A stretch of DNA of 64,000 nt from Escherichia phage vB_Ec-M-J (OQ718158.1); one strand, 5' to 3'; positions 20,513-44,179 are shown, counted from the first letter of the stretch. Made by a program: numbers and translations. Notes: a model not told the origin generated them from the sequence alone.

Positions 20513-20518
20513 TTTATA

Positions 20519-21652: not shown

Positions 21653-21696
21653 AATTCCCTCCTTTATTCTTTATACTATATTTAATCAAAAAGAAA

Positions 21697-21715: not shown

Positions 21716-21722
21716 CATTATT

Positions 21723-22883: not shown

Positions 22884-22896
22884 TTTTTTCTCCTTA

Positions 22897-24045: not shown

Positions 24046-24116
24046 AATTCCCTCCTTTATTCATTATACTATATTTAATCAAAAAGAAAAGCCAGTACTC
24101 AAGTACTGGCATTATC

Positions 24117-25295: not shown

Positions 25296-25370
25296 ATATT
25301 TTTCCTCCTTTATTCATTATACTATATTTAATCAAAACGAAATGCCAGCACTCAAGTACTGGCATTATTG

Positions 25371-26561: not shown

Positions 26562-26631
26562 ATTTTCCTCCTTTATTCATAATACTATATTTAACCAAAA
26601 AGAAAAGCCAGTACTTGATACTGGCGTAATG

Positions 26632-27774: not shown

Positions 27775-27850
27775 AATTCCCTCCTTTATTCATTATACTA
27801 TATTTAATACAAAAAAGAAAAGCCAGCACTCAAGTACTGGCATTTTAATT

Positions 27851-28999: not shown

Positions 29000-29070
29000 A
29001 TTTCCCTCCTTTATTCATTATACTATATTTAATTCAAAAAGAAAAGCCAGTATCAAGTACTGGCATTATG

Positions 29071-30180: not shown

Positions 30181-30190
30181 ATTTCTCTCC

Positions 30191-31321
30191 TTAATTTAAT
30201 AATGCCCCTGGCAAATCCACTTTGACGAATTGTGCATATGCTGAGGAATTTTGATCAAAGTTTGGTCCCAATCCATAAAATGAGCTAATGCCGTCTTCAT
30301 TTGTGTATATGATATAAACGTTCTTTACATCATTTCCGCATATAAATCGAATGTCTTTCGTTTGTGTTCCCGCTGGAACATTACGAAGGTTCACAACGCC
30401 ATTACTTGCATTGTTATCAGCCGACGCAATTGGTAATTGATTTTGACCATATTGACCACGCATATTTTTTGCATCTAAACCAAACACAGTATCTGATACC
30501 GCACCAACTTTCAAAAATGAACCAAAACTATTATTGAATGACTTTGGAAATGTACCACTATAAACACTTCTCCCATCTGATAATACCGCTGAACTGAATT
30601 TCCCGCTATTCGATATGGCAAATTCATTGTAAGGAAGTGTACCCATTTTGGTATATACAGAATATGAATTAGTGGAAGTATTATCAATAATCTTATTACC
30701 ATTATATCCAATACCATACTGGTATCCGTCTGCATCTTGAACTATACACAAAGGACCACTTGGGGTTTGTGTCAACGAAACAACACGTTCAACTTGTATA
30801 TCACCAAATGTATTTCTTCGCCATGTTCTATCTATTATAGTACTAGTATTACCCAAAGATAATGCCACACTATATAATAGATTGTTTTCAGTAAAAATGG
30901 CAACATAATATGCGTGGTTAATAACTTGCTTCATCCCAGCATCAATAACTTCCTGTGGAATATGATCAGTAACATCCAACCAATCAAGGTTAGATGATGC
31001 AATATCTGGAGTACTGAATTTGTCAAATCTAGTTGAGCCACAAACTAGCACTCTATCATCATTTGTCAAAGCCACTGTGCTAGTCTGCATATTAGAACTG
31101 AATGATTTAACATTACTAATGTTAGACTTGTACCAACCCTTATCAGCAGCACCCACCGTGAATCCGGTTCCCATTGATCCACTTGTACTTGTACCATAAG
31201 CCCACATCTCACCACTATATGTTAGTGCCATACAGTGGCTTCCATTTGCTTGGAAATCCTTTATACCAGTGGGAGCAACCACTGTATTCCCATAATCAAA
31301 CATTCTAACAAAAGGTAACAT
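30191..31321 (-). CDS. beta-propeller-like protein, leader MLPFVRMFDYGN
   Basis: 376 aa; same leader; variant upstream cassette. Confidence 0.75.
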   Translation of the reverse strand: MLPFVRMFDYGNTVVAPTGIKDFQANGSHCMALTYSGEMWAYGTSTSGSMGTGFTVGAADKGWYKSNISNVKSFSSNMQTSTVALTNDDRVLVCGSTRFDKFSTPDIASSNLDWLDVTDHIPQEVIDAGMKQVINHAYYVAIFTENNLLYSVALSLGNTSTIIDRTWRRNTFGDIQVERVVSLTQTPSGPLCIVQDADGYQYGIGYNGNKIIDNTSTNSYSVYTKMGTLPYNEFAISNSGKFSSAVLSDGRSVYSGTFPKSFNNSFGSFLKVGAVSDTVFGLDAKNMRGQYGQNQLPIASADNNASNGVVNLRNVPAGTQTKDIRFICGNDVKNVYIIYTNEDGISSFYGLGPNFDQNSSAYAQFVKVDLPGALLN

Positions 31322-31398
31322 AACTAATTCTCCAAATTCAAATAATTATAATGTATTTACAAAAAAAATACCAGCACATATTTCAGTACTGGTATCAT

Positions 31399-32580
31399 TT
31401 ATGGTAAAATGATAGATTGTAACGAACTCATACCCAATGCTGGAACACTAGCCTGTGGTGCTGGAGAATTCAATTTTGGTGATGAAACCGCATATGACAT
31501 TCCTGAACCCAAATCTGGATCAAAAACTACAGCACAATAATTCCCACTATATATAAGTCCATTCTTGTATCCTTGTGCACTTTGAATGCATTTCGTGAAC
31601 GTACCAATATCTGTAGTGGCATTTATTAAGTTCCTCCCACGATAACCGCAGGTGTATATGAAATTATCATCGCCTATGTACATACTAGAATCCCCAGAAG
31701 AACTACATAGATACGACATATAAGCACGCATGTTTTTAGGAGCAACTGACAATGTACCTGCATAGAATTTATTATTCGAACCCGTAATATCACCATCACC
31801 CAATGCACCAAAACTTCCCCAGCCAGTACCATAATATCTCTTATCACTCAAGAATATAATACAGTTGTTATTACACATCTTGACTTGATATATCAATGAA
31901 GGATCAACCCCAGGGAATGATTCAGTGTATGTTAGAACAGCCAGATCAGTACTAGCATTACATTGATGATATGTATTAGTACCAGCGGACAAGATTGTTC
32001 CATTAGCTAACAGAATTCTCGCAGTACCAGTACCAGCAGTACAAGCAACTGCACTTCCTGCACTTCCGGTGTATATTTGTCTGAAAGTAAAGAAACCAAC
32101 AGTTTTACTTCCCTGCCCACTCCAACCAGTATTATCAACTCCACACGCCCATACTGAACCATCTTGCATGATCATCATTACACCAAAGCGTTCTATTGAA
32201 ATATAAACAATCTTCGTTGTATCAACTGCACTAAATCTAGAAGTTATATCAGTCCATACCTTAACACTTACCGCCGTCGCACTGGAAGTAGGATCTTCAC
32301 CAGCTATCATTATCCTCCCATTGTTAGTAAGATACATTGTCTGACTATAACCAGTACTACAAAACTTAACACTATCAGTCTCTGGAACTTTTAACCACTC
32401 GTTGTAACGTGTTACGTTAGTGTTATTACCTAACTGATAATAGTTATTCATCCCAGATACATATAACACACCATCCTTTATTAAACTATAAGTCGCACTA
32501 TAGTCACTACAGGTATAACGTGTACCCACAGGTCGCTCAACGACGTTCCCATAATCAAACATTCTAACAAAAGGTAACAT
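31399..32580 (-). CDS. beta-propeller protein, RCC1-like, leader MLPFVRMFDYGN
   Basis: 393 aa; motif YYQLGNNT. Confidence 0.8.
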   Translation of the reverse strand: MLPFVRMFDYGNVVERPVGTRYTCSDYSATYSLIKDGVLYVSGMNNYYQLGNNTNVTRYNEWLKVPETDSVKFCSTGYSQTMYLTNNGRIMIAGEDPTSSATAVSVKVWTDITSRFSAVDTTKIVYISIERFGVMMIMQDGSVWACGVDNTGWSGQGSKTVGFFTFRQIYTGSAGSAVACTAGTGTARILLANGTILSAGTNTYHQCNASTDLAVLTYTESFPGVDPSLIYQVKMCNNNCIIFLSDKRYYGTGWGSFGALGDGDITGSNNKFYAGTLSVAPKNMRAYMSYLCSSSGDSSMYIGDDNFIYTCGYRGRNLINATTDIGTFTKCIQSAQGYKNGLIYSGNYCAVVFDPDLGSGMSYAVSSPKLNSPAPQASVPALGMSSLQSIILP

Positions 32581-32653
32581 AATAAAATCTCCGTAATTAA
32601 ATTATATAGTATTTACAAAAAATACCAGTACATATTTCAGTACTGACCTATTA

Positions 32654-33775
32654 TTAAAAGGGCAACGGTAACTCAGTAAAAGTACTTACGTCCGGTAAAC
32701 CATACATTGAATTAGCATCACCACAGTAATACCACTTCGTAGAATCATGTACCACCGATAAACGCTGTGCACATAACACTTCCTGTATGTCATTAAACAC
32801 CATCGGGACTAACTCATATGTATCCGCAAATGAAGATACACCACCACTCGCATGAAAAGTATTCGTCCCAGCATAAAATAACTGATTAGTGTTCTTACCC
32901 ACAGCAAATGTCATCAATATCCCATCATTCTCCCATAAAGAAGAAAACTTATCAACACTACCAGAAAGCTCTGTGTAAGTACTCGTAATGGCACTCGCAG
33001 CCGCCGCATTACCCATCTGTTTATTCAAGTTCTGTCCAGCAATAAAATATCTCGTGCGTGCACTAGAATCAGTATATAATAACCCAGTGTTCGTAGTCAT
33101 CATTCCAATGTCCTTAATCGTCATACCAGTCTGTGAATAACTTAGATACGAAGTTAAACTACCATTATTACCCAACGAACCGTTATCACTCATGCCACAA
33201 CGATGTAATATACCACTTGTATCAACGTAGATAGTACTAACTAAACTCGTATACAACTCTTGTACATTATTCGCAATAAACACAGCAGTCGCCTTATTAC
33301 TAACCCCACCAAATGATAGGTTATTATCAAATCCCTTAGCGTATAATTGATTATTAGTAGTCAATAATCCAATCGTGAAATAAGACATTTTCATATCCCT
33401 TACTGTACTCAAATCTACTGCCCCAAATTGGTGCGTAACATCTGTCCATGTGAAAATCTGTGCACTACCAACACCACCCGTTTCAAACCATTTGTCACCA
33501 CAGTACAATATGCGATTACCCTTAGTAAAGATAACTGTTACCAATCCACTACCACACGCAAACTTTACATCACTTCTAACCTTCGTCCAATCAAGTACAT
33601 AGGTAGTGGTGTTATTACCTATACCTAACTTGCCATAACGGTTATAACCACGCACCCACAAATCACCACTCTTAGTAATTAATAGTAATGCGTCTCCTGT
33701 ACTTATTATTCGAAATCCCGAACTAGGATCAGGTACTTCATTTCCATAATCAAACATTCTAACAAAAGGTAACAT
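32654..33775 (-). CDS. beta-propeller-like protein, leader MLPFVRMFDYGN
   Basis: 373 aa; conserved leader and cassette. Confidence 0.75.
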   Translation of the reverse strand: MLPFVRMFDYGNEVPDPSSGFRIISTGDALLLITKSGDLWVRGYNRYGKLGIGNNTTTYVLDWTKVRSDVKFACGSGLVTVIFTKGNRILYCGDKWFETGGVGSAQIFTWTDVTHQFGAVDLSTVRDMKMSYFTIGLLTTNNQLYAKGFDNNLSFGGVSNKATAVFIANNVQELYTSLVSTIYVDTSGILHRCGMSDNGSLGNNGSLTSYLSYSQTGMTIKDIGMMTTNTGLLYTDSSARTRYFIAGQNLNKQMGNAAAASAITSTYTELSGSVDKFSSLWENDGILMTFAVGKNTNQLFYAGTNTFHASGGVSSFADTYELVPMVFNDIQEVLCAQRLSVVHDSTKWYYCGDANSMYGLPDVSTFTELPLPF

Positions 33776-33848
33776 ATATCCCTCCTTTATTCATTATACT
33801 ATATTTAATCAAAAAAGAAATGCCAGTACTCAAGTACTGGCATAGTAT

Positions 33849-34976
33849 TCAAAAAGGTAAATCAATTTGCTTAGTAATAATAGTATCTAACGGTATTGAA
33901 CACAATGAGAAATTCTTTCCACCCGTATTTTCAGGATTATATCCATTCATCCATACATTATTACCTTCGTAAAATGTATTCCAGTATAAAGACCCACTAT
34001 ATCGTGTATTCGAATTGAACGATGTAAAATTGAATTCTTGAAATGCTGTAAAATATGGAAGGGAACTTGAACTACTTCCCGTAAATGGGGTATGCCCAGT
34101 TGCTATTAGTTTGTTTGTATCTGCATTAATTAAAAATACAACACTAGTCGAATAGTCCAACGAATCAGGATGATATATATTACTCATATCACCTATAGTA
34201 AAACCAACATCAAAAACTTTACTATGTGCACCACTACCAGCAAAAGTAGTTCCAGTTGCATATATTTTATTATCAGATGTTATCATTACAAAACCAACAC
34301 CAGAAACAAAACTGCATTTTATATCATAAGATATATCATCAAACAACGGAACAAATGTGGTTGCATCACCCGATGTTGCTTTAACTTGAAAGCTGTTATT
34401 TGAACCTGAACCATATACAGTTCCATCGTTTTTAATCTTAAACAATGTATCGCCAAGGTAACCGCCAAATATATTATCCACATTAGTGTCAAGTACAGTC
34501 CACGCTGAAACATAATTTTTATGTCCTAAACCTAATGTACCACTTCGATTCCATCCTCTTCCATAAAGTGTTCCGTCTTTCATTAATATAAATGCTGTAT
34601 AACCACATAACATTTTTTTAATTTGGGTAACATCTATACCAGTGAAATACACAGCCCAGTCAGTATATCCTTGTTGGAAAGTATTAGAATTCGTGAATGC
34701 ATATGTTGAACCTGAACCATATATTTTATCACCTTTAATAACAACGGAAAACGATCCTAACCATAAGTCATCAACTTCAGTTGTGATTTGTTGAACTGCT
34801 CCTAACGATACAAACTGTGTACTTAAACCCGCATTATAGTTTGAATCTTCACCGTGTGCATATACAGTGCCATCTTGCATTAGAAACATTTCAAGAGTGT
34901 AACTAACAACACTTTTCTTTATATTATTAACTTCGATTATATTCCCATAATCAAACATTCTAACAAAAGGTAACAT
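33849..34976 (-). CDS. beta-propeller protein, RCC1-like, leader MLPFVRMFDYGN
   Basis: 375 aa; motifs YGRGWNRSGTLGLGH, YGSGSNNS. Confidence 0.8.
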   Translation of the reverse strand: MLPFVRMFDYGNIIEVNNIKKSVVSYTLEMFLMQDGTVYAHGEDSNYNAGLSTQFVSLGAVQQITTEVDDLWLGSFSVVIKGDKIYGSGSTYAFTNSNTFQQGYTDWAVYFTGIDVTQIKKMLCGYTAFILMKDGTLYGRGWNRSGTLGLGHKNYVSAWTVLDTNVDNIFGGYLGDTLFKIKNDGTVYGSGSNNSFQVKATSGDATTFVPLFDDISYDIKCSFVSGVGFVMITSDNKIYATGTTFAGSGAHSKVFDVGFTIGDMSNIYHPDSLDYSTSVVFLINADTNKLIATGHTPFTGSSSSSLPYFTAFQEFNFTSFNSNTRYSGSLYWNTFYEGNNVWMNGYNPENTGGKNFSLCSIPLDTIITKQIDLPF

Positions 34977-35045
34977 AATTCCCTCCTTTATTCATTATAC
35001 TATATTTAATCAAAAAAAGCCAGTATCAAGTACTGGCATATTAAT

Positions 35046-36194
35046 TTACTGCAAAAATGACATATCGACTTCTGTATAATTAAGAACGTTCTGTCCAGAA
35101 ATACCACCCATTACTACTATTGCAAGGCCACAATAATATAATTTTCCAGTATCAGTAAGTATAAGTGAACCAGATGGGGTGCGTACCAAATTACAAGAGG
35201 TATTAAACGAAGTATATGAAGGAGTATAGGAGTACTGATTAATATTATTACCAACACCTAATTGACCAGACGCGTTGCTTCCAGATGCATAAAGTACTTC
35301 ATCACCTTTAACTATATGTGATGCCATGTTACCAACACAAGTATATAAACTATAAACACCTGCACTCAATAATGTGGGGGTTTTATATTGTATATCAGTA
35401 GAAGAGGAAGTACCACCTGTACCAAATTCGTTCCCATATTGTGCACCGAACTGTTTACCACAAGCGTACAAATTATTATCCGATTTGATAAAAAATGTAC
35501 TCTGATAACTTACATTAAAATCTATAACATCCGAAGAAATCATCGTCACCCCAGTAATAGAAGTTTGATTACCCGTGCCCAACTGGTAGTAATAGTTAAA
35601 ACCACAACCCCATAAAGTATTATCTTCTCGCAAATAAATGTTACCAACTGCCTTTTTAACCGAAGTTATAGTATCTACTCTTTTGAATGTGTTAAAAGAA
35701 TTAATGTTTGTGCCATCACCAAATGATGATATGTTCGATATATTGTTAGCTCCACAACAATACAATGTACCATCGTTTGTTATCAAATTCACCTTCATAT
35801 CATAAAAACTACTCATGTATTTTATATCAGAAACATTAATACCACTTGATGTTATCCACGTAGTACAGTCCGTCCACAAAGTTTTTCTATCAGTTACACC
35901 AGTGAATGCCTTCGTGTTACCAGTGATAAAAACTTTTCCAGTACCTTTCTCTTCATACAATTGACAATCACTACTGTTATCTTCCAATAGAACTCGTTTA
36001 ACATTCTCCGCACAAAGAATAAATTTACTCGATGCTACACCTGTACCAGTACCCCAATTCGTCGCAGAAGATGCATACAACTTATCAGTATAAGTATCAT
36101 GAAGATACATAGAATCACTGGAATATATTTTAAAACGCCCAGAGTTGGTAGGTGCTTCATTCCCATAATCAAACATTCTTACAAAAGGTAACAT
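35046..36194 (-). CDS. beta-propeller protein, RCC1-like, leader MLPFVRMFDYGN
   Basis: 382 aa; motifs YYQLGTGN, SGQLGVGN. Confidence 0.8.
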   Translation of the reverse strand: MLPFVRMFDYGNEAPTNSGRFKIYSSDSMYLHDTYTDKLYASSATNWGTGTGVASSKFILCAENVKRVLLEDNSSDCQLYEEKGTGKVFITGNTKAFTGVTDRKTLWTDCTTWITSSGINVSDIKYMSSFYDMKVNLITNDGTLYCCGANNISNISSFGDGTNINSFNTFKRVDTITSVKKAVGNIYLREDNTLWGCGFNYYYQLGTGNQTSITGVTMISSDVIDFNVSYQSTFFIKSDNNLYACGKQFGAQYGNEFGTGGTSSSTDIQYKTPTLLSAGVYSLYTCVGNMASHIVKGDEVLYASGSNASGQLGVGNNINQYSYTPSYTSFNTSCNLVRTPSGSLILTDTGKLYYCGLAIVVMGGISGQNVLNYTEVDMSFLQ

Positions 36195-36206
36195 ATTTCC
36201 TCCAAA

Positions 36207-37112
36207 TTATTTAAAAACATACTGCGTATTAACACGTGTCCCGTTGTCGTAACCAAGTACGTAAAATATTTCAGCACTATTATTAGAGCCAAATAATGCA
36301 CCAGTACTATTACTCAACGTTGTATTGATAGCTAATGGTATCCATTTGTTTTGCTCGGCATCATATTTTAATAAATTTAATGCACCATAAGATACTGCAT
36401 ATATACCTTTGTCATATCTATTGTAAATTATCTTACTAGGGTTAGCTCCACCAACTGCTGCCATTCTTGACCAAACCGCACTCTCTATGTGATATTTTTG
36501 TGCAGGAGTAGATCCTTGTCCTGTAAAATATATGTAAGTACCATCAGTGCACATATCACCACCACCATTGTTTGTTGTATTCCCAGTAGTACCTAACGAT
36601 GTCCATGTATTAGTACTCGGCGTATAACTATATAATGCAGTATTAGACGGTGAACCCCACAAATATATCTTATCCCCTGTAGTAATCATCTTACTATATA
36701 CTGCCTGGTTAGGTTTGCCAACACTTGTATTATTCAGTGTCCATGTATCAGAGCTTATGTCATATACATAAAAATTATTATTAGCAACATTCGCTGCACC
36801 TAAACCACCGAACAAATATATTTTTCCTTGATAGGCACACAATGCACTTCCATAGGTGGATACTGGTGGTGATGATAATTGTACCCATATTCTAGAATTT
36901 AAATTAAAACTCCATAACTGATTATCCTGGTTCGAAGTATTCATTATACCACCAAATATATAAGCAGTATTTCTTGATGCATCATACGTATAACCAAAGT
37001 TATTTCGTGCTGAAGGTACTGGTGATGTGGTAAATTGAGTTCGTATACCACCATTTGGGGCTGGTAATGGAGCTTCATTCCCATAATCAAACATTCTAAC
37101 AAAAGGTAACAT
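36207..37112 (-). CDS. Kelch-type beta-propeller protein with the same leader MLPFVRMFDYGN
   Basis: track ORF trimmed to MLPF start; Kelch-like blades YIFGG, IYLFGG, IYLWG, YIYFTG. Confidence 0.75.
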   Translation of the reverse strand: MLPFVRMFDYGNEAPLPAPNGGIRTQFTTSPVPSARNNFGYTYDASRNTAYIFGGIMNTSNQDNQLWSFNLNSRIWVQLSSPPVSTYGSALCAYQGKIYLFGGLGAANVANNNFYVYDISSDTWTLNNTSVGKPNQAVYSKMITTGDKIYLWGSPSNTALYSYTPSTNTWTSLGTTGNTTNNGGGDMCTDGTYIYFTGQGSTPAQKYHIESAVWSRMAAVGGANPSKIIYNRYDKGIYAVSYGALNLLKYDAEQNKWIPLAINTTLSNSTGALFGSNNSAEIFYVLGYDNGTRVNTQYVFK

Positions 37113-37159
37113 ATTTCCTCCTTTATTCATTATATCATATTTACCCCATAAACAAAACC

Positions 37160-37188
37160 CTTGACATCCTTTCAGTACTGGTGTACTA
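37160..37188 (+). promoter_or_regulatory. sigma70-type promoter for the plus-strand small-gene array
   Basis: TTGACA-N17-TACTAT in divergent region between Kelch gene start and array. Confidence 0.55.
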
Positions 37189-37214
37189 TAGAAGGAATAC
37201 AAGGAGAACTACAC

Positions 37215-37442
37215 ATGACAGCTACACTTAAGTACTACATTAATACTCTAAATGAACTAGAGTACGGTAAGTTTCTCGCGGATAGTTCGTGGCTAATTGA
37301 GCTAAAAACACATAACAGTACTGGATGTAACCTTATGCTGAACAATGCACTTGATACCCTTGTAGTGAGTATTTTACACAGCACCATCTGCGGGGATAGC
37401 AATAAACAATTATCAAAAATCTTAGTACTGGTAGCTCTATGA
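37215..37442 (+). CDS. small protein, EYY-family-like (first gene of plus-strand array)
   Basis: track ORF trimmed to ATG after AAGGAG; N-terminal KYYINTL; behind TTGACA-N17-TACTAT promoter. Confidence 0.5.
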   Translation: MTATLKYYINTLNELEYGKFLADSSWLIELKTHNSTGCNLMLNNALDTLVVSILHSTICGDSNKQLSKILVLVAL

Positions 37443-37651
37443 ACACTATGAACATTGAACAGTACTACATTGATGCACTGCCAACAAAAGGTCTACGAGA
37501 AAGCCTACTGTATACACAAAATAATTATATAAACCTCAAACATTGTCCTAAACTATTGAACTCGTACAGGAATAATAAAATAAGAAATGCTGTACAAGGG
37601 GTAGAAAGTATGCAATACTATTACATCCTAACCCTTTTAATCGAGCACTAA
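37439..37651 (+). CDS. small protein, EYY-family paralog
   Basis: about 70 aa; N-terminal QYYIDAL, C-terminal YYYILTLLIEH. Confidence 0.55.
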   Translation: MNTMNIEQYYIDALPTKGLRESLLYTQNNYINLKHCPKLLNSYRNNKIRNAVQGVESMQYYYILTLLIEH

Positions 37652-37652
37652 T

Positions 37653-37838
37653 ATGTATAAAGAATTCTACTGTAGTAAGCTGCACAAACAATACAGAGAT
37701 TCATTTCCCAATGAACCTATGGATATGAATAGTCCCTTTTATAAATTTGACTTCAGACTGGAGACACGTTATGCAATAGAACATCAATTTCCTGAAACTA
37801 AGTACTTATCTATCATGAACCTCATCTTTAAGTTCTAA
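37653..37838 (+). CDS. small protein, EYY-family paralog
   Basis: N-terminal MYKEFY; hydrophobic C-terminal motif. Confidence 0.55.
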   Translation: MYKEFYCSKLHKQYRDSFPNEPMDMNSPFYKFDFRLETRYAIEHQFPETKYLSIMNLIFKF

Positions 37839-37849
37839 AAGAGTACTAT

Positions 37850-38062
37850 ATGAAAACTATGAACATACACCAGTACTACTTAGATATTCTCCCTAAAGAT
37901 GTACAGTTCATCCTTAAACAAGAATACAGTACTTTAAAAAACCTTAAAAGATCCGCACCGAATGTATTAATCCTGCACCAAGAAAATGTAGTTGATAATA
38001 TTCTACAAGGTGTACCAGGGACCGAGTACTTTAACATAATAAGGCTAATTACATTACCATGA
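37850..38062 (+). CDS. small protein, EYY-family paralog
   Basis: N-terminal HQYYLDILP; C-terminal EYFNIIRLITLP. Confidence 0.55.
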   Translation: MKTMNIHQYYLDILPKDVQFILKQEYSTLKNLKRSAPNVLILHQENVVDNILQGVPGTEYFNIIRLITLP

Positions 38063-38244
38063 ATCATATATTATACTATTACCAAAATCTATCCGACAGG
38101 GACAAGTACACCCACAACTCCAATGTATGGTACTACAAACGCGGTAGTATAAGAGACAAACAACATTACTTCTGTATTGCTATAAAAGAAGCACTAACAA
38201 CTAAGTACACGTACAGAGCAGTACTGAAACTTATTGATATGTAA
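38059..38244 (+). CDS. small protein, EYY-family paralog
   Basis: C-terminal YTYRAVLKLIDM; ATGA overlap. Confidence 0.55.
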   Translation: MNHILYYYQNLSDRDKYTHNSNVWYYKRGSIRDKQHYFCIAIKEALTTKYTYRAVLKLIDM

Positions 38245-38254
38245 AGAGAATACT

Positions 38255-38437
38255 ATGAGCATTGAATTGTACTTAAGTAAATTACAGCCTGGCGATAGAT
38301 TCATCTACAATAAGTTCGAATTCAACTACAAGAACGGGAGCAACAAATATCGTCGAGGATACCTATATACAAGCACAAGAGATGCACAAAACGAAAAGTA
38401 CACATACAGAGAAGTACTTAAACTAATCTCTATTTGA
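38255..38437 (+). CDS. small protein, EYY-family paralog
   Basis: track ORF trimmed to ATG; C-terminal YTYREVLKLISI. Confidence 0.5.
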   Translation: MSIELYLSKLQPGDRFIYNKFEFNYKNGSNKYRRGYLYTSTRDAQNEKYTYREVLKLISI

Positions 38438-38445
38438 GGTAATAT

Positions 38446-38631
38446 ATGAATACATTTGAGTACTATACAAATAAACTATCTATGCCTGAAAGATCTCATC
38501 TCTATGTGTGGAGAAATGCGTATAAAAGCGGCAATAAACTTATACAAAGAAATTCCCTTACAGTGTGTACAAATTTAATTAAAGCAGAGTACCGCACATA
38601 TATTGAAGTACTCAAACTGATAGCAATCTAA
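38446..38631 (+). CDS. small protein, EYY-family paralog
   Basis: N-terminal MNTFEYYTNKL; C-terminal EVLKLIAI. Confidence 0.55.
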   Translation: MNTFEYYTNKLSMPERSHLYVWRNAYKSGNKLIQRNSLTVCTNLIKAEYRTYIEVLKLIAI

Positions 38632-38639
38632 GGTACTCT

Positions 38640-38819
38640 ATGCAAGAATTCTATATCTATAACCTCCAGCACAAAGATAGATACAACTATAATAAATTCC
38701 AAAGGTACTACACAGTCGGGAACAAAAGAGATAAAAAACGTTATCTACTCTCGTGTACAGTAGAAGCACAAAACGAAAAGTACACGTACAGAGAAGTACT
38801 TAAACTAATCTTAATCTAA
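38640..38819 (+). CDS. small protein, EYY-family paralog (59 aa)
   Basis: hand-found ORF below track threshold; MQEFYIYNL...YTYREVLKLILI. Confidence 0.5.
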   Translation: MQEFYIYNLQHKDRYNYNKFQRYYTVGNKRDKKRYLLSCTVEAQNEKYTYREVLKLILI

Positions 38820-38826
38820 GGTAGAC

Positions 38827-39015
38827 ATGAACACTTTTGAGTACTACTTCAATAAACTAAACCACATAGAACAAAGTATGCACAACTCATTTATTCAGCA
38901 CCATCAATCATCTGCACATGGAATTAAAAATATATCGATTGAGATTATCACTACCCGTGTACTGTCATCTGAACGTTATATGTATATTGATGTACTGAAA
39001 CTCATCTCTATGTAA
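38827..39015 (+). CDS. small protein, EYY-family paralog
   Basis: N-terminal MNTFEYYFNKL; C-terminal DVLKLISM. Confidence 0.55.
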   Translation: MNTFEYYFNKLNHIEQSMHNSFIQHHQSSAHGIKNISIEIITTRVLSSERYMYIDVLKLISM

Positions 39016-39023
39016 GGAATAAT

Positions 39024-39203
39024 ATGCAAGAATACTATATAGAACACATAAGCATTAAAGACCGTTTCATGTACGACACCTTCGTGAAGTACTACAACCT
39101 GGCAACTAATAGTACTAAAAATATTAATCTCAATAGCTGCATTCATCACGCACTAACAAAAGATAATCCCTTCAGGGAAATCCTCGCTCTCGCATCTGTA
39201 TAA
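39024..39203 (+). CDS. small protein, EYY-family paralog (59 aa)
   Basis: hand-found ORF below track threshold; N-terminal MQEYYIEHI. Confidence 0.45.
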   Translation: MQEYYIEHISIKDRFMYDTFVKYYNLATNSTKNINLNSCIHHALTKDNPFREILALASV

Positions 39204-39213
39204 AGGAAACCAA

Positions 39214-39873
39214 ATGAAACTTAATGCACACAGCAAACAATACCTTAAGCACTTTAAATACCTCAACAGTATTCAAGCAGAATCAGTTACATCATCTTAT
39301 ACGTATCACCCGAATATACTAAAGAAACGAAATAAAAAGAAAAAATCCAGAAATGTTCTCGTATCTAAGAACCTCAAATCGTACTTGAAGAAAAATAATA
39401 TAGCTCTTGCTTTTATTAATATCTATAATACTGATTTAAAAGTATTGAGTACTAATACCAGCACAAAAGCACTAAAGAATGCATCTATCTATATACACAT
39501 GGATAATATCCCGTGCACTATAATTCTATCTTTCGGGAATGTATACTTCTTCGGGAATTGTAATAGCACCCATGATATCAGTACTGCACAATTCCAAATC
39601 GGCGATATGTACTGCATGGGTTCAGAAAAAATACACGATAACATGCACTTCTTCCAAAAGCAACGTACTAACGAAACTGATACAGTACTGCAATTCCTCA
39701 AAGAATTACCAGGCAAAGAATTAACACCAGAAGAAGAATTCATGTACAGTACTGTAATCGATAATCCAGGACTCTATAAAAACGCGTACAAACTAACAAA
39801 ACATGTACAGGAACTTATCAGTACTGATAAGAAAATTCATCACCTCATTACGTATATTACAAACTATGTATAA
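39214..39873 (+). CDS. hypothetical protein (219 aa) interrupting the small-gene array
   Basis: track ORF; basic N-terminal region; GGAAAC RBS. Confidence 0.55.
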   Translation: MKLNAHSKQYLKHFKYLNSIQAESVTSSYTYHPNILKKRNKKKKSRNVLVSKNLKSYLKKNNIALAFINIYNTDLKVLSTNTSTKALKNASIYIHMDNIPCTIILSFGNVYFFGNCNSTHDISTAQFQIGDMYCMGSEKIHDNMHFFQKQRTNETDTVLQFLKELPGKELTPEEEFMYSTVIDNPGLYKNAYKLTKHVQELISTDKKIHHLITYITNYV

Positions 39874-40048
39874 AGAATACTACAAAGATAAAATCCCAAT
39901 GCATCTACAACACCATATACCAAACGTTGCATTGGGTATCAAAGATCACGCAAAGATAATGTTCCAACAATGTACTAAGTACACGCTCATATACGATGAT
40001 AATCCATATATGCTGTACTACGTAGTAATGCTAACATTCAGGTACTAA
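39866..40048 (+). CDS. small protein, EYY-family paralog
   Basis: track ORF trimmed to MYKEYYKDKIP; C-terminal YYVVMLTFRY. Confidence 0.5.
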   Translation: MYKEYYKDKIPMHLQHHIPNVALGIKDHAKIMFQQCTKYTLIYDDNPYMLYYVVMLTFRY

Positions 40049-40049
40049 T

Positions 40050-40229
40050 ATGCACAAACATAAAGAATTCTACCTCTCGTACCTTAATTCCGATATAGTA
40101 ACATCCAATACCTTCAGTACTAAAATTATCTATAATGAATTAATGAAAGAGTGTATTAAAGGTGCTATTAACCCTAAAGATACGTATGACTTGTACTATG
40201 CAGTACTAACCCTTGTTTTCACGAAATAA
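40050..40229 (+). CDS. small protein, EYY-family paralog (59 aa)
   Basis: hand-found ORF below track threshold; N-terminal MHKHKEFYLSYL. Confidence 0.45.
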   Translation: MHKHKEFYLSYLNSDIVTSNTFSTKIIYNELMKECIKGAINPKDTYDLYYAVLTLVFTK

Positions 40230-40237
40230 CACATAAT

Positions 40238-40429
40238 ATGAATAACCACAAAGAATACTACATAGATAAACTCCCAATGCATCTACAATACCTTGTACCA
40301 ACAGAACCATTGGGTATAGAAAAAGACTACGAAAAAGACTACTTCGTTAAGTGCACTAAATCCTCGATAGATATTGAGGACTATAATCGAGTACTGTATC
40401 ACATCCTTTTACTAATATATAAGTACTAA
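40238..40429 (+). CDS. small protein, EYY-family paralog
   Basis: N-terminal MNNHKEYYIDKLP; C-terminal ILLLIYKY. Confidence 0.55.
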   Translation: MNNHKEYYIDKLPMHLQYLVPTEPLGIEKDYEKDYFVKCTKSSIDIEDYNRVLYHILLLIYKY

Positions 40430-40430
40430 T

Positions 40431-40619
40431 ATGAATAACCACAAAGAATACTACATACAATTTCTCCCCAGTATTTTTGAACACTACGCCAGATATAAAG
40501 TCCCCCTGGATAACGATTTGGCAGTACTGGGATTCAATAACTGCATAGAACGAAGTATAGAAAATAGTAGTAGTTATGACCAATTATATAACACTATCCT
40601 ACTTATATTCAGGTACTAA
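40431..40619 (+). CDS. small protein, EYY-family paralog
   Basis: N-terminal MNNHKEYYIQFLP; C-terminal ILLIFRY. Confidence 0.55.
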   Translation: MNNHKEYYIQFLPSIFEHYARYKVPLDNDLAVLGFNNCIERSIENSSSYDQLYNTILLIFRY

Positions 40620-40620
40620 T

Positions 40621-40812
40621 GTGTATAAAGAATACTACATAAAAGATTTACCACCGCACCTTCAAGGTAATCTGTTAGAAGATGAACCTCGCGGTATCAA
40701 TGCTCAAAACGATAAAGTGTACTTTACTATGTGCACTAAAGCATGTATACTAGATTTTGACAGCTATCATCGAGTACTGTATCATGTACTGTACCTAGCT
40801 TTCGTGTACTAA
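40621..40812 (+). CDS. small protein, EYY-family paralog (probable GTG start)
   Basis: paralog alignment places start at GTG giving (M)YKEYYIKDLP; C-terminal VLYLAFVY. Confidence 0.45.
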   Translation: MYKEYYIKDLPPHLQGNLLEDEPRGINAQNDKVYFTMCTKACILDFDSYHRVLYHVLYLAFVY

Positions 40813-40822
40813 AGAGGCCAAT

Positions 40823-41029
40823 ATGAACGAACAGAAAGAATTTTACACCAAACACCTCAGTGCATCAGAACAAATGTTTCTAAGGAGTGTATCACCTTTA
40901 AGTTTAGATACACCACACGCCAGAGATTGTTTTAATAATTGTATACGTATTACTCTAGAAGCTTTAGAAAATAATAACAAAAATATTCAGTACTCAGGCG
41001 TAATGGGACTAATATTCTTCTATGAATAA
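40823..41029 (+). CDS. small protein, EYY-family paralog
   Basis: N-terminal MNEQKEFYTKHL; C-terminal GLIFFYE. Confidence 0.55.
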   Translation: MNEQKEFYTKHLSASEQMFLRSVSPLSLDTPHARDCFNNCIRITLEALENNNKNIQYSGVMGLIFFYE

Positions 41030-41210
41030 CAAAGAATTCTACATAAACCATCTGGAACTAAACTCCCAAATGCTTATACCACTAAACCCAATAGATATCA
41101 AGGATAAGAAAAATACCCAACAATTCATTTACCATACACAGTGTGCTATCACTCCAGATTATAATACATATAAACTGTACTACATTCTCGCCCTAATATA
41201 CAGGTACTAA
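41022..41210 (+). CDS. small protein, EYY-family paralog
   Basis: N-terminal MNNKEFYINHL; start overlaps upstream stop. Confidence 0.55.
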   Translation: MNNKEFYINHLELNSQMLIPLNPIDIKDKKNTQQFIYHTQCAITPDYNTYKLYYILALIYRY

Positions 41211-41211
41211 T

Positions 41212-41397
41212 ATGCATAGAGAATACTACACACAATTTGTTAAAGGGAACTACAAACACGCCGTCCCCGTAAACCCCTTAAATTCTAATGACCCAAGTAC
41301 TATATTCTTGTTCCATGACGCAATACGTACAGTACTCAATACTAAAGATGAACAGGTGCAGTACGTATTCTTACTATTACTTATATACAGACACTAA
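41212..41397 (+). CDS. small protein, EYY-family paralog
   Basis: N-terminal MHREYYTQF; C-terminal LLLLIYRH. Confidence 0.55.
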   Translation: MHREYYTQFVKGNYKHAVPVNPLNSNDPSTIFLFHDAIRTVLNTKDEQVQYVFLLLLIYRH

Positions 41398-41402
41398 CTA
41401 AT

Positions 41403-41612
41403 ATGAATAAAGAACATAAAGAATACTACTCCAAACACCTCAGCCCCTCAGAACAAATGTTTCTAAGGACTACAGCACCTTTAAGTACTGATACATATTT
41501 CGGCAGATTATGCTACAATAATTGTATTCAAATGACTTTAAACGCAAACGACAATAATAACAGTACTAACCTGTACTCAGGCATCATAGGTATACTATTT
41601 CTATATGAATAA
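41403..41612 (+). CDS. small protein, EYY-family paralog
   Basis: N-terminal MNKEHKEYYSKHL; close paralog of 40823..41029. Confidence 0.55.
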   Translation: MNKEHKEYYSKHLSPSEQMFLRTTAPLSTDTYFGRLCYNNCIQMTLNANDNNNSTNLYSGIIGILFLYE

Positions 41613-41787
41613 AGAACATAAAGACTTCTATATAAGAAAACTAACATTCGTCCCCGTAAAAATATATAAAGAATGCGACCCAAGATTATACCTATGGCAC
41701 TTCAATGAGTGCATAAAAGATTCTATATACCCTAAGAACTACAAAGAACAATTGTGCTCAGTACTAACCCTAGTACTATCATATTAA
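41605..41787 (+). CDS. small protein, EYY-family paralog
   Basis: N-terminal MNKEHKDFYIRKL. Confidence 0.55.
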   Translation: MNKEHKDFYIRKLTFVPVKIYKECDPRLYLWHFNECIKDSIYPKNYKEQLCSVLTLVLSY

Positions 41788-41800
41788 TAGAGATAATACT

Positions 41801-41983
41801 ATGCATAAAGACTTCTATATAAGTAAACTCAAAGAGAATGAACAAGCATGGGTTAACAATTTAATCCCCCTGGCAATGACTCAATACGAATTTAATATGT
41901 GTACAAAGATTGTTTTAACTAGTAATGATATCTCTAATACGTACTACTTCCTATTAAGAGTACTATATGGTACTTTGAAATAA
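41801..41983 (+). CDS. small protein, EYY-family paralog
   Basis: N-terminal MHKDFYISKL. Confidence 0.55.
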   Translation: MHKDFYISKLKENEQAWVNNLIPLAMTQYEFNMCTKIVLTSNDISNTYYFLLRVLYGTLK

Positions 41984-41994
41984 TAAGGTATACT

Positions 41995-42201
41995 ATGCAG
42001 AACATAAAAAACTATAAAGAGTACTATATAAGTAAACTACCACCGACTGACCAAGCATGGATTAGATCTATAATAGTACTGGCATTTAATAGATATGCAT
42101 TTAACAGATGTACCGAGATTGCTATAGACCCTTATAATATTAAAGAGAATGTACAGCATAATCAGTACTACTATATGTTAATGCTTATATATAGGAAGTA
42201 A
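41995..42201 (+). CDS. small protein, EYY-family paralog (last of array)
   Basis: N-terminal KEYYISKLP; C-terminal YYYMLMLIYRK. Confidence 0.55.
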   Translation: MQNIKNYKEYYISKLPPTDQAWIRSIIVLAFNRYAFNRCTEIAIDPYNIKENVQHNQYYYMLMLIYRK

Positions 42202-42547
42202 TTCAACATATAGACAGGGGGAAGCTCCGCAGGGAAAGCATTGGACAGGCTTTAACATATGTTATATATGTTAAAATTCAGCCTGGACAAATGCGATCAC
42301 TAGGATTCTCCCCAGGCTAAACCCCGTAATCATATGTAGTCATAAGTAATCATATATAAACATTTAAGTAATCATTTATAATCACTGTAGTGATCAGTAG
42401 TGAGTACTAGAGTGTAATAGAGTACAGGAATGTGCACGTTTAATCAAGAACGTAGCAGTACTGATATGTCACTAAAGTAGGCAGAGGAAGTCTGCCGTAC
42501 TTTGTAGTTTCCAAGCTCCTTTTCCATTTTGCAAATTACATCAAATG

Positions 42548-42574
42548 TAATCAAAAGTAATCAAAAGTAATCAC
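42548..42574. repeat. short tandem repeat GTAATCAAAA x2.7
   Basis: AATGTAATCAAAAGTAATCAAAAGTAATCA. Confidence 0.6.
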
Positions 42575-43263
42575 GCAATGATTAGTACTGAATTATTACT
42601 TTCACCTTAATTTCAATTACCCCTTTACCCTTCGGGGTAAAATTCCATTACCCCTTGAGGCTCCAGCAAAAAGTTGGTTAGTACTCCATCCTAAATCTCG
42701 ATCCTAAAAATTTTGGAGTACCTATGAAATAAAAGTTGGATCTTCGAAATTTGAAATTTACGTTGGGACGTTTATGATTTGTGGGATATAATGATGTTTG
42801 TAGTCGGGTAGTTTTCAAGAATATCAGCACTGAATAATGAAAGAAAGCTATTGACATTATGATTCAGTACTGTATAATGTTCTACATAGGGTGATGAGTT
42901 GCTGCGAACAATTCATTTACTCTACCTCCTGTCGTGAGACAGTACAGAAAAGATAGTTCCTCCTGTGGTGGTACATCTTTTTGAACCTCATATGAAAATC
43001 GTAATAACAGTACTGATATTAACAGAATGGTGTCAGTACTGATTTTAATCTAAAGCATTATGCCACCAGCACAAGCTGGTGGATTCCCTCTAACAGTATT
43101 CAGTACTACATGATGGTCTTCATCCTCCTAGGGTAACATAGTGAGGGCTATGATGGCAGTACTGAATACTCCCTTTCAAAAGATAGATCTATGGTATAGT
43201 ACTGACGGATTTTGGGCGTAGTTACCCTGGATGGATTTTGGACGTAGATATGTCTAGCCCTCC

Positions 43264-43395
43264 AGAAGTCTGGAAGTAAAGATGGCTATCCATCTAGACG
43301 GCTAAACGGCTAGATTTCTGGATGGCTAGATGGCTAGACGTTTGGACGGCTAAACGGCTAGATGGTTACACGTCTGGAAGTATAGACGGCTAAAT
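43264..43395. repeat. iteron-like direct repeats of (C/T)GGCTA(A/G)A
   Basis: about 9 copies of GGCTAGA/GGCTAAA within 130 bp, plus repeated TCTGGAAGT. Confidence 0.6.
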
Positions 43396-44151
43396 CAAAA
43401 TTTTATTTTGTTTTTCCAATAGTTCCCCTACCGCGTGGGGATAGTTTCCCCGCAGTATCTGGAGTTAGATTTTTCTGAATCTGGAATCATTATCTTATAA
43501 ACTGGGGGCAATGTCAACGACCTGGACGGATATTTTTAAAAATTTTTTCAGTACTGAATTTTGGGCGTAACTATGCACCCGGTGGGCTTGAGTCTTTCTC
43601 GACTTGATGGAACTATTATACAGTACTGAAAAAATAAAGCAATACCCTGGAAGCAAAAAAGTTTTAATTAATTTGCTTGCTATCCTGGGCCGGACTATGG
43701 TACTATATTTCAGTACTGAGAAAGTGCGTTTACCTGCTAGGGTGCGGGAGTGTATCCTTTTTTTATATCTTGAATTTTGGGCGTAATTCCGCACCCTCTG
43801 GGGTTTCCGCTTTCTCGCGTCTATGTAGTAATTATACGCTTTTTCAGGATCAAGTCAATACCTAAAAACAAAATAATTGAAAATAATTTAACGCGTTTAA
43901 ACGGCCCGTAAAGCCCTGGAATGATTGGAATGGTGCAAATGTATAGCTTAGGTGTATTAATGCGTTAGAATGCGTCTGAGGCCGTTTTACGGGGTATAGG
44001 GATGATTTGGTGGATTGATTCAGTACTGAATGATAGTACTACTATATAGAAAGATAGTTCCCCTGGATGGTTGCAGTACTGAATGATAGTACTGAATAAT
44101 AGTTCCCCTATATAGAAAGAAAACTATTTTAAAAGTATTTGTAGAAAGTAC

Positions 44152-44179
44152 TTGCAAACTAAGTTTAACGGCGTATAAT
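44152..44179 (+). promoter_or_regulatory. class-A early promoter
   Basis: AAAGTACTTGCAA-N16-TATAATGTTTTACATC, one of about 30 near-identical copies. Confidence 0.7.

Follow-up and report, generated by a model that had tools for sequence, protein, structure and literature searches.

A tandem array of small paralogous genes in an Asteriusvirus jumbo coliphage as a candidate early operon of host-directed binder proteins

Introduction

Closely packed, very small genes that follow strong host-type promoters and are transcribed early by the host RNA polymerase are known from the host-takeover module of SPO1 and the early ORFans of T4. In poxviruses and in the MGF of ASFV, tandem arrays of paralogs vary in copy number between strains, and their functions are thought to lie in host range or immune evasion.

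Other phage systems come close in one respect or another. Bacillus phage G carries about 35 copies of a zinc ribbon, a lineage-specific expansion (PMC7824862), and it has been proposed that the genomes of 121Q and phAPEC6 grew in part by tandem duplication (PMC7247149). The RpoD-like promoters of CBB, a related phage, are concentrated at short hypothetical ORFs, which the authors read as early host-takeover genes (PMC5259590). The internal proteins of T4 are highly diverse defence proteins with only a capsid-targeting sequence in common, and T4-type IP loci act against variable host defence enzymes (PMC3012670).

Here we describe an array of small genes in Escherichia phage vB_Ec-M-J (OQ718158.1), an Asteriusvirus (121Q/PBECO4-like) jumbo coliphage. 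The window, that is the whole stretch of DNA analysed, is 64,000 nucleotides long and 97% identical to Escherichia phage BF17. Every member of the array is annotated in the deposited records as "hypothetical protein" only, and the family is not described in PMC7824862 or PMC7247149.

Results

Layout of the array

Positions 37215-42201 hold 22 tightly packed tandem ORFs of 59-75 aa on the plus strand, with one unrelated 219-aa gene between them. The ORFs fall into three subgroups, A (ORFs 5-10), B (ORFs 3 and 11-22) and C (ORFs 2 and 4); subgroup A (38059-39203) has sizes of 59-62 aa and ORFs 11-22 (39866-42201) of 59-69 aa.

37215-37442, plus strand: ORF 1, 75 aa, borderline member with a KYYxxL start and a hydrophobic ILVLVAL end
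37439-37651, plus strand: ORF 2, 70 aa, subgroup C
37653-37838, plus strand: ORF 3, 61 aa, subgroup B
37850-38062, plus strand: ORF 4, 70 aa, subgroup C
38059-38244, plus strand: ORF 5, subgroup A
38255-38437, plus strand: ORF 6, subgroup A
38446-38631, plus strand: ORF 7, subgroup A
38640-38819, plus strand: ORF 8, subgroup A
38827-39015, plus strand: ORF 9, subgroup A
39024-39203, plus strand: ORF 10, subgroup A
39214-39873, plus strand: 219-aa gene, phrog_29152, inside the operon but outside the family
39866-40048, plus strand: ORF 11, subgroup B, phrog_11711
40050-40229, plus strand: ORF 12, subgroup B, phrog_11711
40238-40429, plus strand: ORF 13, subgroup B, phrog_11711, modelled with AF2
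40431-40619, plus strand: ORF 14, subgroup B, phrog_11711
40621-40812, plus strand: ORF 15, subgroup B, phrog_11711, GTG start
40823-41029, plus strand: ORF 16, subgroup B, phrog_11711
41022-41210, plus strand: ORF 17, subgroup B, phrog_11711
41212-41397, plus strand: ORF 18, subgroup B, phrog_11711
41403-41612, plus strand: ORF 19, subgroup B, phrog_11711
41605-41787, plus strand: ORF 20, subgroup B, phrog_11711
41801-41983, plus strand: ORF 21, subgroup B, phrog_11711
41995-42201, plus strand: ORF 22, subgroup B, phrog_11711

Within 37215-42201, 97.7% of the sequence is coding, and genes lie in all three reading frames. Four junctions overlap (two by 4 nt, two by 8 nt), five have gaps of 1 nt, and the remainder measure 5-13 nt. 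Shine-Dalgarno-like sites precede about half of the small ORFs. Further, the conserved C-terminal codons ...AGG TAC TAA supply the predicted ribosome-binding site of the next gene, a packing for translational coupling. All 22 ORFs listed in the first-pass annotation are present, as are the overlapping stop and start codons and the single GTG start, which in the WPEC5 ortholog is an ATG at the same position. The size range given there, 59-70 aa, was too narrow at the upper end, the first ORF having 75 aa, and of the 22 members three fall below 60 aa, one fewer than given there.

The 219-aa gene, absent from that earlier description, is a distant paralog of a 216-aa ORF at 19835-20485 and shows no similarity to the small-protein family. 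Between its stop and the start of ORF 11 there is an 8-nt overlap.

One family with a helical fold

The small proteins carry an N-terminal K-E-Y/F-Y-x-x-x-L motif and a C-terminal Y-Y-x-x-L-x-L-I-x-x-Y motif. Both had been pointed out before and both are real. A family HMM matches 21 members in the window, with E-values from 1e-11 to 5e-25, and nothing beyond these across the 64 kb. Profile-profile comparison with hhalign joins subgroup B to A (probability 86%, E = 5e-6) and to C (probability 92%, E = 6e-7), in both cases over 55-56 columns. At the sequence level it is thereby demonstrated that 21 ORFs form a single family, collinear between subgroups.

The claim of 22 paralogs accordingly holds for 21, while ORF 1 is only a plausible member. 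It has no BLAST link to the other array ORFs, and its hhalign score is marginal against subgroup C (E = 1.9e-3, probability 14%) and non-significant against A or B. Its AF2 model is all-helical (pLDDT 73), with helix lengths unlike those of the other member modelled. In all relatives ORF 1 is kept as the array's first gene.

Among existing models, phrog_11711, whose function is listed as unknown in PHROG, is matched over the full length by 13 of the 22 ORFs (ORF 3 and ORFs 11-22; best E = 2.6e-28), and so covers subgroup B only. Subgroups A and C and ORF 1 have no match in PHROG, Pfam or NCBIfam models. The union of subgroups A, B and C into one family, as judged by these profiles, is new here.

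The AF2 model of 40238-40429 is a small helical fold (pLDDT 92.3, pTM 0.77) with helices at residues 3-9, 14-17, 30-45 and 49-62, the N-terminal motif forming a packed helix in the model (pLDDT 82-95). No relative of this fold was found in PDB or Pfam, and neither fold nor sequence searches gave a match pointing to any activity. GRAVY is negative in 21 of 22 proteins, transmembrane segments are absent, and Tyr makes up 10.3% of the residues; four members of subgroup A are basic (pI 9.4-9.6, net charge +5 to +6). The conserved aromatic and hydrophobic residues lie at the two ends of the protein and in a single central helix (F-x-x-C-T-x-x-x-I), with the C-terminus as strongly conserved as the N-terminus, and the 20-30 residues between the conserved parts vary freely.

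Spread and turnover

Matches to the family were found in 35 phage records, all from Escherichia or Salmonella Asteriusvirus. There are 48 matches among 5.8 billion proteins, and when 1.84 billion protein representatives were searched exhaustively, 37 family clusters came up. Every contig or record traced, a set that leaves out the 31 newly found clusters, is Asteriusvirus-like, and by those traced the family is restricted to this genus. Within it the array holds 15-22 copies in six genomes, and both the copy number and the sequence of the small genes turn over faster than the neighbouring genes.

Promoters and the 3' element

The following elements flank the array or lie inside it.

37128-37143, minus strand: divergent promoter motif of the propeller type, TAAATATGATATAATG, for the Kelch-type gene 36207-37109
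37161-37189, plus strand: sigma-70-type promoter TTGACA-N17-TACTAT of the small-gene operon
40757-40785, plus strand: promoter-like TTGACA-N17-TATCAT inside ORF 15
42211-42330, plus strand: non-coding element, structured and highly conserved, directly after the last gene

The single TTGACA-N17-TACTAT promoter that the first-pass annotation placed ahead of the array is found at 37161-37189, conserved and divergent from the propeller array. Six Asteriusvirus phages have both of its hexamers unchanged; the divergent JNE01 has a -10 of TACAAT. The spacer contains the palindrome CAGTACTG. In a comparison with JNE01, where the small proteins reach no more than 59% identity, the 105-bp intergenic region is still 90% conserved. 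The site at 40757-40785 is a doubtful promoter, as its -35 drifts to TTGATA or ATGACA in relatives.

Perfect sigma-70 promoters are abundant in the window, where they precede small plus-strand genes; promoter-like sites as a whole show no enrichment in this stretch (19 counted, 32 expected). The window has just two copies of the T4-type late motif TATAAATA, at 4271 and 5513, both upstream of structural genes, and none at the small-gene operon. Like an early host-takeover operon, the array has a conserved host sigma-70 promoter ahead of densely packed small genes. Judged by promoter type alone, it is probably expressed early; the literature searched contained no time-course transcriptome or proteome for any Asteriusvirus.

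The element at 42211-42330 has an MFE of -42.1 kcal/mol (z = -4.1) and no T-run. Its last 62 nt are invariant across the genus. In the upstream hairpin stem WPEC5 differs yet is self-complementary when aligned by eye, with no pairs changed on both sides according to the tool. The element may mark the 3' end of the operon.

A candidate operon of host-directed binders

The explanation that we favour, and to which we give an even chance, is that the array is expressed early as a translationally coupled operon, whose products are a diversified family of binder proteins aimed at the host. It would be a single polycistronic operon of 21, possibly 22, co-oriented paralogs behind one conserved host-type (sigma-70) promoter, and the family would have expanded by tandem duplication followed by divergence. 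The products would be genus-restricted, soluble, tyrosine-rich helical proteins of about 60 aa, each a mini helical bundle with the conserved residues as its core and a variable surface on display. From such a core and surface we infer a library of binders. The same combination is found in most protein families and is no proof of binder function. By analogy with other early phage genes, the binders would be made in the first minutes of infection and might act on variable host proteins, in host takeover, counter-defence or host range.

Relation to the propeller array

The neighbouring propellers number 16, as reported earlier, with their composition now refined to 15 RCC1-like and one Kelch-type protein; the product of the Kelch-type gene (36207-37109, minus strand) starts with MLPF. 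The small array and the propeller array are divergently adjacent in every genome that has the family. This adjacency is real and speaks in favour of a functional link. Across six non-independent genomes the copy numbers of both arrays rise together, with small-gene to propeller counts of 22:16, 22:15, 21:10-13, 16:10-14, 16:9 and 15:6-9. Conserved adjacency and joint rise leave room for some functional link.

The small proteins could accordingly be partners of the propellers, i.e. assembly chaperones, adaptors, inhibitors or immunity-like proteins, working either as specific pairs or through conserved termini that bind the conserved MLPF N-terminal region of the propellers. The well-conserved intergenic region fits this, as do the highest copy numbers of both arrays occurring in the same genomes and an extra family member at the far end of the propeller array in JNE01. 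However, the ratio is neither fixed nor 1:1 in the six genomes, and no correlated presence, absence or divergence of small protein-propeller pairs was seen across genomes. In JNE01 four propellers are 83-99% identical to those of the window, while no small protein exceeds 59%; JP4 and 121Q have the same subset of the window's propellers, yet JP4 has five extra small genes; and for three window propellers that BF17 lacks there is no corresponding small gene specific to the window. Further, the Yersinia phage fHe-Yen9-04 (Eneladusvirus) carries five RCC1-like genes in tandem, and about 21 kb of sequence around them is free of family members, and the family is absent from all other Rak2-like phages with 1-2 propellers. 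Each propeller gene has a private promoter motif, of a type unlike the small-gene promoter. Finally, the virion proteome of phAPEC6, a related phage, includes the RCC1-like gp549 and gp551, and a 4.7-kDa protein was detected, but its mass-spectrometry Table 1 lists none of the small-array proteins, as far as the accessible text of PMC7247149 goes.

We therefore consider a partnership unlikely, if a serious candidate. The first-pass speculation about cognate adaptors, chaperones or immunity-like proteins is not supported: the ratios, the uncoupled presence and divergence and the differing promoters speak against it, and the co-occurrence behind it holds throughout Asteriusvirus and breaks down in fHe-Yen9-04. 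Under the host-directed binder explanation the small proteins would be neither stoichiometric nor cognate partners of the virion-associated propellers, and the adjacency would be the shared boundary of two hyper-variable accessory arrays.

It is also conceivable, although quite improbable, that both arrays are one combinatorial host-interaction system. The virion-borne, cassette-exchanged propellers would then be effectors or receptor binders, and the small helical proteins early-made modulators (inhibitors, adaptors or specificity switches) of the propellers or of their host targets. If true, this would be a phage analogue of the paired multigene families of giant eukaryotic viruses, with a fold without known relative.

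Regulators or internal proteins

A different role would be that of small DNA-, RNA- or RNA-polymerase-binding regulators of phage or host transcription, for example in the control of the individually promoted propeller genes. The four basic members of subgroup A, the small size and helical structure, the predicted early expression and the conserved promoter-like motif that each propeller gene has of its own all agree with it; we nevertheless regard it as very improbable.

The array could also encode capsid-targeted internal or ejected proteins, with the N-terminal motif as targeting sequence and the variable body as an injected anti-restriction effector. A polymorphic array of small, diverse proteins with a conserved N-terminus resembles the T4 internal proteins, which are likewise diverse with a common targeting sequence (PMC3012670). 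However, this has only a slim chance of being right, given the sigma-70-type instead of late promoter, the silence of the phAPEC6 virion table in the accessible text despite its 4.7-kDa protein (PMC7247149), the packed helix in which the motif is modelled, the equally conserved C-terminus, and the lack of a consistent L/I-x-E protease site after the motif as read from the ORF sequences.

Coding status and selection

The small ORFs are intact and syntenic in WPEC5, 121Q, SD-2_S15, JNE01, slurp01, BF17, JP4 and one JGI metagenome contig. Pooled over 67 ortholog pairs their dN/dS is 0.42, with 0.37 at the N-terminus, 0.49 in the middle and 0.29 at the C-terminus. The structural, endoV and AAA genes show 0.02-0.17 where dS is large enough to trust, with the exception of 1.19 in one near-identical pair (dS 0.010), and orthologous propellers mostly 0.10-0.26, up to 0.49. 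These values indicate that the small ORFs are under purifying but relaxed selection. A dN/dS below 1 is no positive sign of an arms race, and the excess in the middle region is modest (0.49 vs 0.29-0.37).

With TRF, no tandem repeat of about 190 nt per unit is detected at the DNA level, so the duplications must be old. Together, the ORFs kept in six related phages, the dN/dS and the Shine-Dalgarno-like sites support the earlier proposal that the paralogs are coding, and the non-coding repeat that had been named as its alternative is contradicted. That the units are decaying duplicates or non-coding repeats without current function has hardly any chance: the relaxed constraint would suit it, as would the deposited annotations, several of which leave out roughly half of the ORFs (the BF17 record calls only 12), but all 22 ORFs are intact with start codons and preserved across phages, even in JNE01 with its protein identities of 30-59%, dN/dS stays clearly under 1, the DNA-level repeat is absent, all three frames are in use and the AF2 fold is confident.

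Discussion

How does a putative operon of host-directed binders compare with known systems? With the multigene families of poxviruses and ASFV it shares tandem paralogs and copy-number variation, by analogy only: those belong to another virus realm and have no homology to it, and here the DNA-level repeats are already erased.

Like the T4-type IP loci (IPI, IPII, IPIII), the array is a cluster of small diverse proteins with a short conserved terminal motif (PMC3012670), and both vary between related phages. In contrast to these loci, both termini are conserved here and form part of the modelled fold, the promoter is of the host sigma-70 type and not of the late type, and the proteins are missing from a related phage's virion table in the accessible text of PMC7247149. 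There is also no similarity in sequence or fold, IPI* being alpha/beta and the array protein all-helical in its model.

Dense, very small genes behind strong host-type promoters are common to the array and the early region proposed for CBB (PMC5259590). With the zinc ribbons of phage G it has in common that a small domain has expanded to very many copies in a single lineage of jumbo phages. However, the family is a different one, without a metal-binding motif and with only one conserved Cys, and the array is, unlike the phage G expansion, strictly tandem, co-oriented and served by one promoter. Finally, while the early modules of T4, SPO1 and CBB consist of unrelated genes, this array is made almost wholly of paralogs of one family.

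Organisation of the small-gene array

The window belongs to a jumbo myovirus, one of the Asteriusvirus phages (121Q, PBECO4, phAPEC6 and their kin), for which the name Rak2-like is often used. Members of this genus have repeatedly been isolated with a view to phage therapy of E. coli and Salmonella infections. Over 37000-42400 it is 97.6% identical to Escherichia phage BF17, and this region matches 35 phage records, whose hosts are all Escherichia or Salmonella; the left flank matches the same phages. The G+C content is about 35%, and the sign of the GC skew switches near 19 kb and again near 42 kb. There are no tRNA genes within the window, and Rfam gives no match anywhere in it, including a structured element at 42211-42330.

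Features of the two divergent arrays. Subgroups of the small proteins were assigned by all-against-all BLAST.
18633-37109, minus strand: propeller array, 15 RCC1-like genes and one Kelch-type gene
37215-42201, plus strand: small array, ORFs 1-22
ORFs 5-10, plus strand: subgroup A
ORF 3 and ORFs 11-22, plus strand: subgroup B (phrog_11711)
ORFs 2 and 4, plus strand: subgroup C
39214-39873, plus strand: unrelated 219-aa gene splitting the small array (phrog_29152)

The first-pass annotation had described 22 tandem small ORFs on the plus strand, and that description is real and correct except for minor details. The ORFs are 59-75 aa long and not 59-70 aa, the first being 75 aa, and three of them, not four, are shorter than 60 aa; the 219-aa gene had been missed. 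Together the ORFs cover 97.7% of the region and use all three reading frames. Overlapping stop and start codons, as had been proposed, do occur: there are four such junctions (by 4 nt at two and 8 nt at two), and at five more the spacing is a single nucleotide. The single GTG start is also present, in the member at 40621; the ortholog in WPEC5, a related phage, carries ATG at exactly that position. A Shine-Dalgarno-like core is found in 13 of the 23 operon genes. At several junctions this core comes from the conserved last codons of the preceding gene, AGG TAC TAA, after which T ATG follows. The end of one gene thus furnishes the ribosome-binding core of the next, a hallmark of coupled translation.

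The C-terminus of the 219-aa gene was considered as a fused family domain and rejected (hhalign E 0.08-0.3, hmmsearch not significant).

Coding status and selection

In deposited records every member is named "hypothetical protein", and several records omit about half of the genes. The ORFs are intact across all relatives examined, including the related phage JNE01, where protein identity to the window is 30-59%. No unit-length tandem repeat is detectable in the array at the DNA level, indicating that the duplications are old and that the pattern is not a repeat artefact. The reading of the array as a non-coding tandem repeat fails on this absence and on the preserved ORFs. That the genes are functionless remnants is hardly credible.

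The pooled dN/dS is 0.42 (67 ortholog pairs); the N-terminus has 0.37, the middle 0.49 and the C-terminus 0.29. This region-wise scan for diversifying selection gave a mild excess in the middle, and overall no value above 1. For comparison, structural, endonuclease V and AAA genes with a dS large enough to trust show 0.02-0.17, and orthologous propellers mostly 0.10-0.26, with values up to 0.49. Judged from these substitution rates, the family is constrained yet fast-evolving. Both its copy number and its sequence vary between close relatives that are therapeutic candidates.

One family with a predicted helical fold

By BLAST, ORF 1 is not linked to any other ORF. The nearest formal family, phrog_11711 (no assigned function), recognises subgroup B only and thus covers the family in part. 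We compared profiles built from about 100 unique members gathered from eight related loci. Subgroup B matches subgroup A (probability 86%, E = 5e-6) and subgroup C (probability 92%, E = 6e-7), in both cases over the full length. ORF 1 matches the subgroup C profile at E = 1.9e-3 only, and its AlphaFold2 model is helical at lower confidence. Of the 22 paralogs proposed earlier, 21 are thus demonstrated by profile links, and ORF 1 is a plausible member. The proposed terminal motifs are recovered as K-E-Y/F-Y-x-x-x-L at the N-terminus and Y-Y-x-x-L-x-L-I-x-x-Y at the C-terminus, and the centre of the proteins adds F-x-x-C-T-x-x-x-I to the signature.

ORF 13 was modelled at high confidence with AlphaFold2 from a 48-sequence family alignment (pLDDT 92.3, pTM 0.77), with helices predicted at residues 3-9, 14-17, 30-45 and 49-62. 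The small proteins are predicted to be soluble, without signal or membrane segments. Their tyrosine content is unusually high (10.3%), and all are near neutral except for four basic members of subgroup A.

Alignment and HMM comparison joined 21 members into a single family, and database searches matched no outside relative. Sequence searches of Pfam, NCBIfam and the PDB gave no meaningful match, the top PDB match being a de novo designed repeat protein. With the predicted fold, the best Foldseek hit in the PDB had E 4.1, and BFVD returned the family itself alone. As far as sequence and model searches of these four databases reach, this is a protein family without known relatives.

The distribution is narrow. 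The 33-35 phage records in which tblastn detects the family are all Asteriusvirus. When 5.8 billion proteins were searched with a k-mer-seeded profile, 48 clusters emerged, and 1.84 billion representatives searched exhaustively with HMMER gave 37 matches, all of 41-69 aa. The contigs and records traced to a source, from clusters outside the 31 that the exhaustive search alone revealed, were all Asteriusvirus-like. The same architecture is seen on a JGI metagenome contig of 70 kb that bears a member. A literature search found no description of the family, and neither transcriptomes nor functional studies of early genes in Asteriusvirus or Rak2-like phages.

Promoters and the putative early region around the array

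The promoter proposed for the small array, TTGACA-N17-TACTAT, is located at 37161-37189. It lies in the 105-bp divergent intergenic region, which is 90% conserved in six phages, a conservation far above that of the downstream coding sequence in JNE01. Further, on both sides of the propellers the plus strand carries many perfect sigma-70 promoters before small genes. At 42.8-63 kb there are fourteen with a 12/12 match to the consensus (thirteen TTGACA-N16-TATAAT, one N17), and one more is found at 10198. The density at 42.8-63 kb suggests a strongly expressed early region. In the related phage CBB, the presence of RpoD-like promoters on short hypothetical ORFs was taken to mark an early host-takeover region (PMC5259590).

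The T4-type late motif TATAAATA occurs twice in the window (4271-4278 and 5513-5520), against 13 copies expected by chance, and it looks strongly avoided elsewhere in the window. Both copies are followed, at 21-33 nt, by a gene whose annotation in the related phage 121Q is structural protein.

A TTGACA-N17-TATCAT site inside ORF 15 is doubtful as an internal promoter. Related phages do not keep its -35 hexamer, and the site probably reflects coding sequence. The variant TTGACA-N17-TACTAT also precedes seven back-to-back plus-strand ORFs of 104-123 aa (16099-18596), a block that looks like a paralog array and is syntenic in Yersinia phage fHe-Yen9-04. These ORFs (16157-18596) were rejected as relatives: they have no similarity to the family, and no BLAST pair among them is significant.

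The non-coding region after the array

Directly after the last small gene, 42211-42330 is strongly structured (MFE -42 kcal/mol, z = -4.1). The element has no T-run, and throughout the genus its final 62 nt show no variation. In its upstream hairpin stem WPEC5 differs and is self-complementary by alignment reading, the count of pairs changed on both sides being zero.

No credible ORF is found in the roughly 2 kb at 42202-44177. This stretch holds an iteron-like run of 8-nt period (43232-43391), AGTAATCA runs of 10-nt period (42319-42384 and 42540-42583), a perfect sigma-70 promoter at 42851 and many copies of the palindromic octamer CAGTACTG. A sign change of the GC skew falls within it, and the record ends of Yersinia phage fHe-Yen9-04 lie at the same map position. 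An origin or a terminus may lie here.

The octamer CAGTACTG has 61 copies in the window against about one expected (for instance 37173-37180, 42865-42872 and 43008-43041). Two promoters, that of the small array and the perfect one at 42851, have it between their -35 and -10 hexamers; other copies form terminator stems between propeller genes or fall inside coding sequence. A role in binding, modification or regulation is conceivable.

The propeller array

Most propeller genes are separate transcription units. A unit comprises a terminator (hairpin GCCAGTACTnnAGTACTGGC and a T-run), the promoter-like motif TAAATATAGTATAATG, an AGGAGG ribosome-binding site and the identical start ATGTTACCTTTT, encoding MLPF. 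Close matches to TAAATATAGTATAATG (0-2 mismatches) occur within the window essentially only before propeller genes. The Kelch-type gene (36207-37109) has the same layout and, among five loci compared, is found in BF17 only.

The propeller at 31399-32580 (minus strand) is 99% identical in protein to its JNE01 counterpart, other JNE01 accessory genes being at 30-59%, and several propellers of the window are missing from close relatives, a pattern suggesting that propeller genes are exchanged like cassettes.

Near the far end of the propeller array lies a plus-strand 216-aa gene (19835-20485), a distant paralog of the 219-aa gene at 39214-39873 (hhalign E = 2.6e-5 over the C-terminal 58 columns). 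In JNE01 (L008, 20817-21669) a homolog of the 216-aa gene is directly followed by an extra small-family member, which may reflect an ancestral module of two genes that was duplicated to either side of the propellers.

What the small proteins may do

The first-pass annotation had speculated that small proteins and propellers are cognate partners. We consider this unlikely: the sole points in its favour are the conserved adjacency and a loosely parallel expansion, and counts, divergence and co-occurrence do not support it. The ratio of small genes to propellers in six genomes is variable and not one to one (22:16, 22:15, 21:10-13, 16:10-14, 16:9 and 15:6-9). In JNE01 four propellers are 83-99% identical to those of the window, while all small proteins are at 59% or below. 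JP4 and 121Q have an identical subset of the window's propellers, and JP4 has five more small genes; three propellers of the window are missing in BF17, with no corresponding difference in small genes. Further, fHe-Yen9-04 (Eneladusvirus) has five tandem RCC1-like genes at the syntenic place and no family member nearby, and the family is absent from other Rak2-like phages carrying one or two propellers. The array thus fails the testable defining features of a cognate-partner model.

That the proteins are small regulators is more doubtful still. Capsid-targeted internal proteins as in T4 are, in our judgement, very improbable. Mass spectrometry of phAPEC6 virions detected eight RCC1-like proteins, and no small-array protein appears in the portion of the virion protein table covered (PMC7247149). 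Virion presence, judged on that portion, a late promoter and a protease site all fail for this model.

We rate the array as a lineage-specific tandem expansion of small, putatively early phage proteins. The best reading, held with middling confidence, is an early operon of diversified host-factor binders. The host RNA polymerase would read one early operon, and coupled translation would yield a mini helical bundle in about 21 variants, with a core formed by the conserved aromatic and hydrophobic residues and a centre that varies. The family would have expanded via tandem duplication. The binders may target variable host factors in takeover, counter-defence or host range. The host-factor reading agrees with the presumed early timing, the confinement to one genus, the fast turnover and the pairing of a conserved scaffold with a variable surface. 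The analysis demonstrates the layout of the array, its coding nature, the family links, the distribution and the uncoupling from the propellers; early expression, a role as binders and a host target are inferred.

Its 21-22 tandem copies place the array among the largest expansions of one family seen in a phage genome. If the proteins act on takeover, counter-defence or host range, they would help explain strain-to-strain differences in host range and would offer about 100 natural variants of a 60-residue scaffold for screening. If they have no measurable effect, the array is still a clean case of jumbo genome growth via duplication. In concept the array comes closest to early host-takeover modules, to the polymorphic loci for internal proteins in T4-type phages (PMC3012670) and to lineage-specific expansions in jumbo phages, such as the approximately 35 zinc ribbons of phage G (PMC7824862).
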